A model generated the notes under the pieces. The model was not told where the DNA came from. It searched no databases and saw only the letters and a program-made list of their open reading frames with translations. Below, piece by piece: positions 14,877 through 20,503 of a stretch of DNA of 64,000 nt (its first letter is position 1; every line of letters begins with the position of its first letter). Position numbers and translations under genes: made by a program. The stretch is from the NCBI GenBank assembly GCA_903821635.1, contig CAIJLV010000150.1:25551-89550 (forward strand), read 5' to 3'. The DNA comes from an uncultured Verrucomicrobiota bacterium (GTDB lineage Bacteria; Verrucomicrobiota; Verrucomicrobiia; Limisphaerales; UBA9464).

Positions 14877-14915
14877 GCTCCGATAGCTCAAATGGATCGA
14901 GCGGCGGTTGCCTAA
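14877..14915 (+). repeat. 39-nt copy of the 5' half of tRNA-Arg(CCT); left boundary (att-like direct repeat) of the integrative element
   Basis: 37/39 identical to 20428-20466 (differences at 14898 and 14910). Similarity ends right after the anticodon-loop position. The downstream sequence cannot complete a cloverleaf. Confidence 0.75.
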
Positions 14916-15393
14916 TTTGAGCCGGGCGTTTTTACTGAGAAATCTGGAGTCATCTACAAGCGTCAATCTTTCGGTTTGCTCAGCGTTTTGACGATTTTGC
15001 GTTATCGGGTGTAATCCTGAAATAGCCCACATTTTCCCGCCGGGTTACCAAACAGGGTTACTAAATTCCAGCGCTCCGGGGTAGATTTGCGATCGCTTTC
15101 GAGCGGCGGTGAACCGAACCGTTTTCCCAAGTCGTCCAAATTCCAACCGCCGGGCCGGCTGGCCCCGCGGTGGGGAAAACCGCCGGGCTTGCCTCCGAAA
15201 AATGGCGCTTTGGCTGGGGGTTTTTGGCGCCGCGATTTGGCATCCGCAAAACACCCCCGCTCCCAGTTGTCACCCGCCGTTGTCACTCGGCCCAGCGAAA
15301 GTCGGCGGCCCGCAGGCGCTTACGCTCCCGCAACTCCCCCATTGCCTTGCGCGGGTTTGCCTCGCCACCCTGCCCCGTTCCCGGACGCACTCC

Positions 15394-15873
15394 ATGACAC
15401 CTGCCGAATTCAAAAAGAAATTGTCCAAGTTCACCGGCAAGGAATCCTCCGGTTACGAGCTGCGGGAAAACTGGCTTAACTCGCCTGAATGGACGGAAAC
15501 CCTCACGCTGGAATTCCCCGGCAGCGTGTCCGGCCCGTGGGCGCGCTACGTGGACCCCGCCACCGTGAACGCCCAGACCGGCGTGGGCACCGTGCGTTAT
15601 CCCCGCCTTGAACCCAAGGACGCGGAACACGCCGCCAAGCTCAAGAAACGCACGCTCACCAACCTCTACAACGAGCGCCCCGCGTGGCTCGCCCACGCCC
15701 ACAAGACGCTCGATGCCGCCTACGGCTGGCCCGCCGACCTGACCGACGAACATATCTTGGAACGCCTCCTCGCCCTCAACCTCCACCGCGCCGCGGAGGA
15801 AGCGAAGACGGCCAAAGCCACCAAGCCCGCCAAGAAACCCCAACGCGCCAAAGGCGAGGGGGAATTGCTGTGA
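15394..15873 (+). pseudogene. Remnant of a large SAM-dependent DNA methyltransferase (C-terminal tail only)
   Basis: 'LKKRTLTNLYNERPAWLAHAHKTLDAAYGWPADLTDEHILERLLALNL' is the characteristic extreme C-terminus of ~900-aa MmeI-like/class I DNA methyltransferases. No catalytic or target-recognition region is present in this 159-aa ORF. Confidence 0.5.
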
Positions 15874-16196
15874 GAAAGAACACGCCAGCGAAGCCCGGTT
15901 CAGACGCCAAGGAAGCCCCGTCGCCAAGGAAGCGCTATCGGGTGATAGCAGACCGGGAAAGCGGAATCCCCGTCCCGCCTGAGTTCCCAGTCAACATTGG
16001 CGATGACTTCGCCGCGTGGGCGACCGATGGCGTAATCACCGTGGTTTTTTCCAAGACTCTCAGCCGCGAAGCGCGAAATCCCCAAGCACGCAATCTGGGG
16101 CAAGGTGGAACCGACTTTGCCGGCCAAGGTTCCCCATCGGGCAGGAAAGGCGCGGCCAGCAAAGTCAAAGCAACAAGAGCAAGGGGGGAACTGTGA
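15870..16196 (+). CDS. Hypothetical small protein, paralogue 1 of a tandem pair
   Basis: The GTG start overlaps the preceding stop (GTGA). 'KRYRVIADRESGIPVPPEFPVNIGDDFAAWATDGVITVVF' is repeated in the next ORF. Confidence 0.35.
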   Translation: MRKNTPAKPGSDAKEAPSPRKRYRVIADRESGIPVPPEFPVNIGDDFAAWATDGVITVVFSKTLSREARNPQARNLGQGGTDFAGQGSPSGRKGAASKVKATRARGEL

Positions 16197-16274
16197 AACA
16201 CAAAGCCAAGCTGCCGAGCAGCAAAGGGAAAGCCGGCTCCCCGTCCGCCTGTTACCGCCCCCAAACGTCATTGG

Positions 16275-16592
16275 GTGGGGGTCGTTGACCGGGATGGCAA
16301 GTGTGGCATTCCCGGAGTGGTGACGGCGCAAGTCGGCGACGACTTTGCTTGGTGGGAAAGTGGTGATGGTGATGATAGCTGGATTATCGCCTTTCCGAAA
16401 ACCGCACGAGCACGACGGGCCATCCCCGCACACGCTCACTGGGGCAAGATTGAACCGGGCTTGCCTGACAAGGTTCCCCCCCCGGGTTGGAAAGGGACGG
16501 AAGCCAGAAACGGCCCCGCCATCAAAGGTCGCCAAGCTGCTGAAAGCATCGGTCAAGAGCTTGAAGGTAGGGCAGGCTTCCGCGCCGGTTGA
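16275..16592 (+). CDS. Hypothetical small protein, paralogue 2, probably 5'-frameshifted
   Basis: 'KRHWVGVVDRDGKCGIPGVVTAQVGDDFAWWESGDGDDSWIIAF' matches paralogue 1. A GTGA junction at 16193-16196 starts a homologous Lys/Pro-rich leader in a different frame (16193-16288), which suggests a frameshift. Confidence 0.3.
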   Translation: MGVVDRDGKCGIPGVVTAQVGDDFAWWESGDGDDSWIIAFPKTARARRAIPAHAHWGKIEPGLPDKVPPPGWKGTEARNGPAIKGRQAAESIGQELEGRAGFRAG

Positions 16593-16657
16593 CCTGACTC
16601 CATTCCGCCGGGATTAGCCGTCCCGCCTGCTCCCGCACTTACTCCGACCGGAGGCAC

Positions 16658-16912
16658 GTGCATGGTTCAGGCATCGGACAACGCACCATTTCCGTTCCCG
16701 CCGACGTGCATGAACTGCTCTCCGCGCAAAAGGAGCCGGGGGAGAGTTTCGGTGATCTGTTGCGCCGACCGATGCGCCCGCCCGCAGACACCTGCGGTGA
16801 ACTTTTGGACCGGCTGGAAGACTTGCCTTTGCCGGCGCTTGACCGCAAGCAGTTGACCGCCTTTCGCAAGGGCCGCCGGTGCCGTTCCCACCGCCCAGCG
16901 CCCCGCGCATGA
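16658..16912 (+). CDS. Putative antitoxin (VapB-like, 'TISV...ESFSD' type)
   Basis: 'QRTISVPADVHELLSAQKEPGESFGDLLRR' resembles small antitoxins encoded upstream of PIN genes. It has an ATGA stop/start overlap with the PIN ORF at 16909. Confidence 0.5.
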   Translation: MHGSGIGQRTISVPADVHELLSAQKEPGESFGDLLRRPMRPPADTCGELLDRLEDLPLPALDRKQLTAFRKGRRCRSHRPAPRA

Positions 16913-18706: not shown

Positions 18707-18714
18707 GTCTCGAT

Positions 18715-18741
18715 GTCTTACCCGTCTTACCCGTCTTACCC
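18715..18741 (-). promoter_or_regulatory. Three perfect tandem 9-bp repeats (GTCTTACCC x3) immediately upstream of vapB; candidate operator
   Basis: Direct reading gives gtcttaccc|gtcttaccc|gtcttaccc. The repeats lie 9-35 nt upstream of the preferred GTG start of the antitoxin. Confidence 0.35.
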
Positions 18742-18968
18742 GACTTGGCAAGGGGGAACCCGGTGGAACGCAACGACGGGGCGCCCTATCGGCCAGCCTG
18801 ACTGTTTACCAACGCCGGGCGCGGCCGCGGCGCAGGCCCAACGGCCGCCCCCCCGCTCAGGCGCGACAGGCGCGACAAGGCCCGTGATTGCTGAGGTTTG
18901 TCGCCCTTGGCCAAGCGCGACGGCCGGAACTGTGTCGCGGCTCGGTTTGCTGGACGGAAGGCCCGTGT

Positions 18969-19517
18969 TCATTGGTTTGTCGCGGGTGTCGCGTTTCCGT
19001 CGGCGGGTGGTAGGTAACGCGCACAGGCCTCGGCGAAGTCTTCGGCGTGGTAGCCTTTCAGAACCTCAGTTCCTAAGCGCACGTCACGGGGAGAAATCCC
19101 GAAGGGCTTCAGCAGTTTGGCCAATTGAACCGGGGAGATGGGCCGACCTTCGCGGATTTCCGGCAGGGATTTCCCGGCGCAGGGCGTATTGCGGGCAAAC
19201 CCCGCCTCGGCAGCTCTCGGCGGCAGCCCATGAGTAAATGCCGTTCCGAGGCTGCGAATGCCGTCGGCCACCGCGAGGCTCTTTCGGAGGCTGGCCACCT
19301 TCGACTGACTGACGCCCACCTTGGGGGCCATCTGCCGGCCGGACAGCTTTTCAAAACCGGTAAAAAGCACGACCTCGATTTCAAGCGCGGACAGCCCCCT
19401 CTTCCTCAGCCAATCGCTTGCCTCCGTCCGGGAAACCTCGTGCCGTTCCAGCGCTTTCGTGTCCCCTTCGTCATTCGCGTATATTTCCGAAAAACCGAAC
19501 GGAACGCCCGCCTCCAC
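18969..19517 (-). CDS. Composite ORF: HTH (sigma-70 region 4/LuxR-like) segment plus a DUF3631-like C-terminal tail
   Basis: 'LSALEIEVVLFTGFEKLSGRQMAPKVGVSQSKVASL' is HTH-like. 'ISPVQLAKLLKPFGISPRDVRLGTEVLKGYHAEDFAEACARYLP' matches the C-terminus of DUF3631 proteins found on integrated elements. The large N-terminal body of such proteins is absent. Confidence 0.4.
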   Translation of the reverse strand: MEAGVPFGFSEIYANDEGDTKALERHEVSRTEASDWLRKRGLSALEIEVVLFTGFEKLSGRQMAPKVGVSQSKVASLRKSLAVADGIRSLGTAFTHGLPPRAAEAGFARNTPCAGKSLPEIREGRPISPVQLAKLLKPFGISPRDVRLGTEVLKGYHAEDFAEACARYLPPADGNATPATNQ

Positions 19518-20353
19518 GGGGCACTAGAAAGCTCTGCGCCTTCACGCAACAGCTCCAAAAGGCACCGCAGATTCGGAAAAATGGGAACCAACCGAGCTTT
19601 GTGATTTTTCGTGCCCTGTTCGCCGCCAGTCACAGTGAAACGTTCACCGGCAAAATTCACCTCCTCCCAACGCAAGGCCACAGCTTCACCAAGACGCATA
19701 CCCGAACAGGCCAGCAACTCAACGAGCGTGACGGCGTGTTTCGCCCTTGGGTCCACGCCCTTCAAGGTTTCGAGCAACTTCGCAAACTGTTCCCGGTTGG
19801 GAATCACCGGCTTGGACTTGTCCGCCTTGCTCCGCGGTAGAATTTCGGCCGAATTGTTGAGGAGCAACTTCTCGCGCTTCGCCACGGCGAAAACCGACTG
19901 GAGCGTTCCCCGCTCGTTGTTGAAGGTGGAAGCAGCCACATGCGAGGAACGGGCCTGCATCCAAGCCTCGCAGTCGCGGGCGGTGACTTTTCGCAGCGGC
20001 AGCTTCCCGAAATAACCGCCCAGATTTTTCAGGCTTAGTTTTTTCCGAGTGGCGGATTTTTCCTTCATCCGCAACGCCGCAACGCCGAACCATCGCTCGG
20101 CAAATTCGGCAACCGTAACTCGACTGGCCCCGGAATCGTCCGGCAACCGATGGACGTTTTCCCGGTAGTCCGACCGGCGCCTTTGGGCCAACTGGCGATC
20201 ATTCGTCTTGAGGGATTTCCGAAACTGTTTGCCTGCCCGCTTAGCCACAGCGTAATAACCACCGGACTGGACGTGGCGATTCAGGCATTCATCGACTTTT
20301 TTGAAACCCGTTTTTTGGGGCCGGCTCGGCGTGTTTTTCATGCCGCTCAGCAT
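19406..20353 (-). pseudogene. Tyrosine recombinase (phage-type integrase), 3'-truncated
   Basis: The N-terminal SAM-like/core-binding region and the first catalytic Arg ('ACSGMRLGEAVALRWEEV') and Lys region ('TKNHKARLVPIFPNL') are present. After about residue 265 (about nt 19558) the sequence loses all integrase similarity. No H-x-x-R and no catalytic Tyr are present. The tail overlaps the next ORF by 112 nt. Confidence 0.7.
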
Positions 20354-20427
20354 CGGGTTACAAAAACGGCTTACAGCATGTTTCGCCTATCTCAAACGCC
20401 CATCGTAAGTTCTTAGTAAGCAACGTT

Positions 20428-20503
20428 GCTCCGATAGCTCAAATGGATAGAGCGGCGGTTTCCTAAACCGTTGATCCCGGTTCAATTCCAGGTCGGAGCA
20501 CCA
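20428..20503 (+). tRNA. tRNA-Arg (anticodon CCT)
   Basis: Manual cloverleaf: acceptor GCTCCGA/TCGGAGC, D-arm GCTC-AAATGGATA-GAGC, anticodon arm GCGGT-TTCCTAA-ACCGT, T-arm CCCGG-TTCAATT-CCAGG (one C-A mismatch), discriminator A and an encoded CCA. Confidence 0.85.

Follow-up and report, generated by a model that had tools for sequence, protein, structure and literature searches.

Nearly all elements that integrate into tRNA genes replace the 3' part of the gene, and the usual rationale is that the host promoter stays in charge. The mirror-image kind of integration is already on record and is rare. Among the 3919 islands of the Islander catalogue, 159 have a 5' fragment of the tRNA gene (tDNA) and 3760 have a 3' fragment (PMC4383910, Table 1), and the Islander filters accept the configuration in which a 5' fragment lies upstream (PMC4383910). 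Bacterial recombinant tRNA genes retain their own promoter 'with very few exceptions' (PMC8371274). In archaea, pTN3-like integrases use the 5' half of the gene as the attachment (att) site attB, and the tRNA is expressed from a promoter on the integrase side, an arrangement seldom found in bacteria (PMC8371274). Here we analysed a stretch of 64,000 nucleotides (hereafter the window) from an uncultured Verrucomicrobiota bacterium of the order Limisphaerales, whose genome (G000) is a metagenome-assembled genome (MAG) of 4.66 Mb in 237 contigs with 87% completeness. Positions 14877-20503 of the window are very probably what decay has left of a small integrative island, probably a replicative one, whose heterobivalent tyrosine integrase recombined at the anticodon loop of tRNA-Arg(CCT).

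The locus shares its main features with the 5'-fragment islands of Islander (Hudson, Lau & Williams 2015, PMC4383910), in which a full tRNA gene and an upstream, co-oriented 5' fragment enclose a tyrosine-integrase island and the crossover belongs to the class centred on the anticodon. A full tDNA, a co-oriented end fragment upstream of it, a tyrosine integrase gene inside and a length within 2-200 kb are all present in the window. Unlike the elements described below, which form a clade with a defined att anatomy, the class is only counted in the Islander paper (PMC4383910), and the window copy is a dead remnant. The likeness to the pTN3-like integrases (Cossu et al. 2017, as summarized in PMC8371274) is functional only and lies in the 5'-half attB and the integrase-side promoter; in that summary, these are plasmid or virus elements of archaea (Thermococcales). 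Classical anticodon-loop elements of the symmetric sublocation (Williams 2002, as summarized in PMC8371274) have the same target loop, a tyrosine integrase and an identity block that restores the gene. However, according to the same summary, classical elements carry positions ~28-76, sit downstream of the gene and leave the host promoter in place, whereas the clade of the window element carries positions 1-39, sits upstream and would supply an element promoter.

ARAGORN calls one tRNA gene in the window, tRNA-Arg(CCT) on the plus strand at 20428-20503, which is the sole such gene called in the G000 assembly. Its positions 1-39, from +1 through the final base of the anticodon loop, recur at 14877-14915 with 37 of 39 bases identical. 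The fragment thus spans the acceptor 5' strand, the D arm, the anticodon-stem 5' strand and the complete anticodon loop. It is on the same strand and in the same orientation as the gene and lies 5.55 kb upstream of it (an interval of 5551 bp). Past the anticodon loop the divergence is complete, since CCTAA is followed by TTTGAGCC in the fragment and by ACCGTTGA in the gene. A repeat search of the window pairs 14877-14915 with 20428-20466 (39 nt, 95%), and a pattern search allowing up to three mismatches matched only the fragment and the gene, with 0 matches expected from 100 shuffles. Both searches agree with the original prediction, made from the letters of the DNA, of a 39-nt copy of the tRNA 5' half that ends with the anticodon loop. 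Across the 4.66-Mb assembly there is no further close copy of the 5' half, the next-best matches being other tRNA-Arg isoacceptor genes, and no 3' fragment of the tRNA occurs anywhere in the window.

The two mismatches of the fragment are A22 to C and U33 to G (canonical numbering; U33 is sequence index 34). The original prediction took them as a possible difference between host and element, a proposal that we do not follow. G34 replaces the universal U33, which is impossible in a working host gene. In addition, the host tRNA of the congener G001 carries A22 and T34, as does the intact G000 gene, and the repeats of intact relatives are mostly 100% identical. For these reasons, the mismatches are best read as probable post-integration decay of a dead fragment, in line with the truncated integrase described below. 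A stretch of 23 nt at 15101-15123, past the left-arm repeats, is 78% identical to tRNA positions 23-45 (the anticodon stem-loop). It was dropped as a tRNA relic, since 15101-15123 is not conserved in relatives and the similarity is probably due to chance.

The left side of an empty site was found in G001, the closest congener by flanking genes. Its gene order matches that of the window up to the exosortase and TPR genes, and a single intact tRNA-Arg(CCT) follows 58 nt after the TPR gene. Window positions 8002-14915 form one colinear block with G001 (76.6% identity, 6.9 kb) that crosses the intergenic spacer, enters the tRNA gene and stops at tRNA position 39. Colinearity resumes only within the tRNA, where window positions 20428-20504 match the same G001 gene. 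Judging from the G001 gene order and the end of the block at position 39, the host locus consisted of the TPR gene and then the tRNA, and G000 gained 5.5 kb at the 3' boundary of the anticodon loop. G001 is thus a relative that lacks the island and has an uninterrupted tRNA, as Islander-type surveys look for, with synteny on the left flank only.

An intact relative occupies the same tRNA in the congener G004. Positions 1-39 of the G004 tRNA-Arg(CCT) are repeated at 100% identity 11.9 kb upstream. The integrase gene, divergent from the tRNA 5' end, encodes a 384-aa protein (P0001) with a complete Phage_integrase domain, and is followed by an unassigned 224-aa open reading frame (ORF), a primase gene and a helicase-like gene. 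The cargo comprises type I restriction-modification genes and DarT/DarG. This element lies on a 648-kb contig and is flanked by core genes, with purH/tRNA-Cys and an MFS transporter gene on its two sides. Window positions 14877-15048 and 19514-20503 are 81% and 79% identical to the ends of the G004 element, respectively, and the cargo between them is unrelated.

Between the tRNA 5' end and the start of the window integrase lie 74 nt. Homology to P0001 runs from residue 4 to residue 296, at 72.7% identity, and ends there (tblastn). The window integrase retains the N-terminal SAM-like domains and positions 6-76 of the 172-position Phage_integrase profile, compared with 5-170 in the G004 integrase; the domain is complete in other relatives as well. 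The catalytic C-terminus is gone, including the His-x-x-Arg motif, the second His/Trp and the Tyr nucleophile that an active tyrosine recombinase has. The ORF with the DUF3631 tail, which keeps only the last 47 profile positions, adjoins the deletion point. The window copy is a dead remnant, with an integrase truncated from residue ~297, fragmentary cargo and a mutated tRNA fragment; it was presumably mobile in the past. The base composition of 14877-20503 is no different from that of its surroundings. No virion structural or packaging gene was matched by Pfam or PHROG among the ORFs tested in the window element and the G004 element. The features of the element are listed in Table 1.

Table 1. 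Features of the tRNA-Arg(CCT) element in the window, with the evidence for each assignment.
Feature	Position	Strand	Evidence
Host 5' half (positions 1-39) of tRNA-Arg(CCT), probably displaced; attL core	14877..14915	+	Repeat with A22C and U33G; G001 colinearity ends here
Left arm	14916..15075	+	TTTGAGCC directly after crossover; GGGTTAC repeats 15042-15048 and 15055-15061; 81% identity to G004 left end over 14877-15048
Cargo remnant ORF, C-terminal part weakly like MmeI-type methyltransferase C-terminal domain	15109..15873	+	Pfam MmeI_C E=0.034, below cut-off; no Pfam match at stricter thresholds
Toxin-antitoxin relic with VapB-like antitoxin ORF	16658..17285	+	Pfam VAPB_antitox E=7e-4, below cut-off
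PIN toxin, apparently intact	18063-18458	-	Pfam PIN 1.5e-5
MazE/AbrB-type antitoxin, paired with PIN toxin	18455-18751	-	Pfam MazE_antitoxin 2.5e-7
ORF with C-terminal tail only of DUF3631 (primase/helicase-associated)	18969..19517	-	Pfam DUF3631 profile positions 136-182 of 182
Truncated tyrosine-integrase pseudogene	19406..20353	-	Homology to G004 integrase residues 4-296 at window 19517-20392
Right arm, integrase to tRNA	20354..20427		GGGTTAC 20355-20361, degenerate GGCTTAC 20368-20374; kept across 16 elements
Candidate promoter boxes	T-rich TTTCGC 20381-20386; GTAAGT 20405-20410		Conserved across 16 elements
Recombinant intact tRNA-Arg(CCT), attR core	20428..20503	+	Positions 1-39 probably element-derived, 40-76 probably host-derived

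These comparisons bear out the original prediction of a degraded integrative element of ~5.5 kb in front of the tRNA, by way of the G001 empty site and the intact G004 relative. The integrase gene that it placed against the tRNA 5' end and the mobile cargo between the copies were recovered as the Pfam integrase match, the DUF3631 tail and the PIN/MazE-AbrB pair. Of the empty site that it expected in relatives, G001 provides the single tRNA after the TPR gene and the colinear left flank; the right flank is not syntenic in any congener. It had also considered that relatives might show no insertion polymorphism or that many loci might share the similarity between fragment and tRNA. An insertion polymorphism exists, and the genome has only this one fragment.

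A further copy of the cargo lies beside tRNA-Arg(CCT) in G005, a congener without the exosortase locus. Window positions 17317-19014 (the PIN/antitoxin region) are 88.7% identical at the nucleotide level to G005 DNA by the same tRNA, and 1.7 kb of this cargo adjoins the gene (L064, G005:C125, oriented positions 2402-4342). The integrase trace is only 84 nt long, and no 5' fragment is present within the 4.2 kb available. The G005 copy is either the same element or a sister of it, in a more advanced state of decay.

The configuration of the window recurs across a clade of related integrases. Of the 401 genomes sampled from the order, 148 have a match to P0001 at E<=1e-30. We fetched 85 integrase loci with 34-74% identity, some counted twice: the best 30 from the order, 35 named public loci and 20 distant ones. 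About 64 of the 85 have a divergent tRNA within ~30-190 nt of the integrase start. The integrase adjoins the 5' end of such a tRNA at 26 of the 30 best loci (39-73% identity), at 19 of the 35 named public loci, the remainder being mostly cut contigs or truncated integrases, and at 19 of the 20 loci with 34-36% identity. In no clade member among the fetched loci does the integrase lie 3' of the tRNA. The targets are tRNAs for Arg (CCT, CCG, TCT, ACG), Thr, Met, Gly, Lys (TTT, CTT), Phe, Val, Pro, Ser (GCT, CGA, GGA), Ala and Gln. The hosts are Verrucomicrobiota (Opitutaceae, Chthoniobacter including the isolate C. flavus Ellin428, Verrucomicrobiia, Limisphaerales) and one Lentisphaerae MAG. NCBIfam gives only generic Xer/integron-type matches below threshold for these integrases, and PHROGs place them in the broad integrase family phrog_1.

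Wherever enough DNA was available, an upstream direct repeat of tRNA position 1 to 35-44 was found, in ~20 elements of 1.7-33 kb. Its extent is, for example, 1-39 in G152 (Arg), Didemnitutus (Arg), three Opitutaceae, the Lentisphaerae MAG (Ser) and two Lys CTT elements; 1-37 in G066 (Met), G202 (Gly), G321 (Lys) and a second G004 element (tRNA-Thr); 1-40 in C. flavus (Arg TCT) and one Ser CGA element; and 1-44 in G354 (Pro). The C. flavus element, at about 306.4-310.7 kb of NZ_ABVL01000003.1, combines a 100%-identical repeat with an integrase match that is uninterrupted. A search for the same integrase family with 5'-half att sites, as the original prediction had suggested, thus yields ~20 elements, among them the intact G004 element at the same tRNA. 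The unusual polarity that it had pointed out, with the 5' half duplicated and the element upstream, extends to the whole clade, but it is not new (PMC4383910, PMC8371274). We found no published description of a large bacterial clade with 5'-half polarity as the rule and such att anatomy, in a search that left the TIGER/Islander catalogue itself outside. We can only tentatively propose, and with some doubt, that these integrases represent an apparently undescribed, large clade of tyrosine integrases across Verrucomicrobiota that always uses the tRNA 5' half and brings its own tRNA promoter.

Several individual loci of the clade show additional arrangements. G004 has two intact elements, at tRNA-Arg(CCT) (L062/L116) and at tRNA-Thr(TGT) (L149, CAZRRO010000014.1). 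The two share integrases with 74% identity and nearly identical left arms but differ in their tRNA halves, so that the pair looks like target switching via exchange of the attP tRNA half. In Chthoniobacter sp. JBBCHV010000036.1 (L133), three upstream 5' copies of tRNA-Arg(TCT), covering positions 1-39, 1-29 and 5-29, lie 8.2, 4.2 and 10.2 kb from the tRNA, respectively, suggesting a tandem array of clade elements. Both sides of one tRNA are occupied in L196 (Ga0182027_10018887), L128, L144 and G120:C64, with a 5'-class element upstream and a classical integrase or 3' fragment just downstream. In the metagenomic contig L207 (Ga0182024_10000850), an integrase-like frame with 46% identity to P0001 reads toward the 5'-half fragment and ends inside it.

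To define the att anatomy, attL and attR were aligned for 16 elements. Their identity begins at tRNA +1 (±3 nt) and, in 14 of the 16, ends at the final base of the anticodon loop. On the element side, the loop is followed directly by a conserved TTTGAnC(n)GG box. The left-arm motif and a GGGTTAC pair, with the repeats at ~+126/+139 past the loop, are kept in 14-15 of the aligned elements. A second GGGTTAC pair in the same orientation is located just upstream of the integrase start, ~60-73 nt before tRNA +1. This layout is that of a heterobivalent integrase attP, in which arm-type sites flank a core of ~40 bp, and the GGGTTAC repeats would be the arm-type Int binding sites. Since the identity block ends at the anticodon loop and this loop is the overlap region in classical elements (PMC8371274), strand exchange most likely takes place in or next to the 7-nt loop. 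Inspection by eye gave no convincing inverted-repeat core around the attP crossover.

Between the second GGGTTAC pair and +1, the elements have in common a GYAAGT box at ~-23 and a T-rich box ~19 nt further upstream. Other tRNA genes of G000 have a CTTGC-type -35 box at ~-45 and a TAnnnT-type -10 box at ~-22. Since the GYAAGT box takes the same position as the -10-like boxes of host tRNAs, it is in the right place for a -10 element, and its conservation and position point to an element-borne tRNA promoter. Because the element DNA starts at or within 3 nt of +1, the rebuilt gene cannot use the host promoter. The element-derived 5' half and promoter region of the original prediction agree with this boundary, the promoter itself being a candidate from conservation and position. 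We also considered whether the orphaned host tRNA promoter drives the cargo. As a general rule this idea was rejected, since the first gene past the fragment is co-oriented in only 7 of the 16 elements (crude ORF call).

The history of the locus can be proposed as follows. Insertion into the host tRNA-Arg(CCT), at that time directly behind the TPR gene, would have displaced the host 5' half upstream, where it now forms the fragment, and the gene would have been rebuilt from the element 5' half and the host 3' half. Intergenic DNA of the element, with arm-type GGGTTAC repeats and a promoter-like box, would now precede the rebuilt gene, in which case transcription must start there. Decay would have come later, with loss of the integrase C-terminus, reduction of the cargo to fragments and the PIN/MazE pair, and two mutations in the fragment. 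The element would now be fixed in place.

Several observations weigh against this reading. The assembly is a MAG in 237 contigs, and the right host flank gives no synteny downstream of the tRNA among G000, G001, G004 and G005, so that the right boundary rests on the end of inter-element homology and on repeat logic. No sigma-70 consensus was found upstream of the tRNA in a generic scan. No free circular attP was found, and relatives of the integrase are absent from 50,697 phage records, 72,556 plasmids and IMG/VR. A metagenome scan for the junction of GCGGTTTCCTAA with TTTGA returned 56 stretches and no free form; ~10 of them have arm repeats, and only integrated, tandem or rearranged forms were seen. 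In C. flavus, the circular attP is predicted to consist of the integrase-side arm, tRNA positions 1-40 and the TTTTTTCAGG arm.

A classical island, either 3'-displacing or carrying a complete tRNA, could have been rearranged by inversion or deletion, with the 5'-half picture arising secondarily. Classical islands do occur at the same tRNA in the family (G006) and classical 3' fragments elsewhere in G000, synteny downstream of the tRNA is scrambled among the congeners, and two metagenomic contigs have an inverted tRNA after the left arm. In these two (L205, L224), tRNA-Arg(CCT) lies on the opposite strand 2.6 kb on, which suggests an inversion. However, the window fragment is directly oriented and starts from +1, the window is without any 3' fragment, and the exact boundary recurs in intact elements flanked by core genes, such as purH and MFS in G004. 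The integrase clades also differ, with 26% identity for the classical integrase against 34-74% within the clade, and we regard a rearranged classical island as very unlikely.

The incompleteness of the MAG, 87% complete in 237 contigs, and the tendency of assemblers to mis-join at repeats raise the question of a chimeric contig that joins two populations at the tRNA repeat. A mis-join at a 39-nt repeat would not give both conserved arms in the correct order and orientation, and the same architecture is seen on large contigs (G004, 648 kb) and in the isolate genome of C. flavus Ellin428, making such an artefact highly improbable. Fragments of tRNA genes can also arise otherwise, and a relic of an old tandem tRNA duplication, between whose copies the mobile genes arrived independently, would be consistent with the two mutations in the fragment. 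Against this, G001 has a single tRNA at the position of the fragment and its colinearity breaks at position 39, DNA homologous to the left end of the G004 element follows the fragment directly, and the same exact 5'-half repeat bounds ~20 related integrase elements at at least 12 different tRNAs. A tandem duplication is hardly credible in the face of these data, and we retain the decayed island with anticodon-loop integration.

Apart from the element, tRNA-Arg(CCT) sits at a rearrangement hot spot. The TPR gene has no tRNA behind it in G002, G003 and G004. G000 lacks an ortholog of the gene that follows the tRNA in G001 and encodes a Sel1 plus trypsin-like protease protein. To the right of the window tRNA, 20822-25129 on the minus strand encodes a secreted-looking protein of 1435 aa with approximately seven diverged internal repeats (families D1-D6), which is not syntenic with the tRNA flank of any congener. 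An A.C/C.A mismatch in the T stem of tRNA-Arg(CCT) is present in three of the four congeners: C51.A63 in G000 (window 20478 and 20490), A51.C63 in G005 and A52.C62 in G004. In G001, the T stem is fully paired (A51-T63). Possible explanations are wobble that is tolerated, noise in the MAG consensus, or chimeras left by classical 3'-side integrations at the T loop.

A classical island at the same tRNA-Arg(CCT) is found in the family member G006 (L065, G006:C177:6000-20000). Its integrase gene (467 aa) is located directly downstream of the tRNA and is co-directional with it, and the protein is 26% identical to P0001, in the catalytic domain only. The corresponding 3' fragment (positions 28-76) is found 7 kb downstream of the tRNA, and other family members also have fragments of positions 27/29-76. 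Two integrase lineages thus target the same loop with opposite polarity. G000 itself contains classical 3' fragments of other tRNA genes: positions 27-75 of tRNA-Thr(TGT) at 100% identity (C179:2417-2465), 21-77 of tRNA-Met at 100% identity (C209:4028-4084) and 45-74 of tRNA-Gly(TCC) (C136:481-510). All three are on contigs other than those of their genes, which suggests further islands split by the assembly.

In gene content, the elements are similar to P4-like or other primase-bearing satellites and to integrative mobilizable islands. The integrase gene by attP is transcribed away from it, a primase and helicase-like module is present, and the intact relatives are small (1.7-33 kb) with restriction-modification, DarTG and toxin-antitoxin genes as defence cargo. 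They differ in having no identified capsid, helper-interaction or transfer genes and no relatives in the phage and plasmid collections.

The window copy itself is an ordinary dead remnant, and the interest of the finding comes chiefly from the clade-wide pattern and the cultured host. For annotation, island finders must allow for 5' fragments upstream of the gene, and a short integrase stub by the 5' end of a tRNA can mark the relic of a fixed element. Elements of opposite polarity at one tRNA within one family, together with the intact copy in a cultured strain, form a comparison set with which one can ask how polarity is set, how targets are switched and what it costs the host to have a tRNA under the promoter of a mobile element. 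If our reading is correct, the clade, including the copy in cultured C. flavus Ellin428, would be a test of the idea that carrying the 3' part preserves the host promoter. Integration would amount to promoter capture, and after decay of the element the only copy of this tRNA in the host would depend on the right end of the element. This end would then be kept by selection, as seems to be the case in G000 and G005, which retain the proximal upstream box although their integrases are truncated or nearly gone. An element that is still intact could, in addition, regulate how much of a rare-codon tRNA is present.

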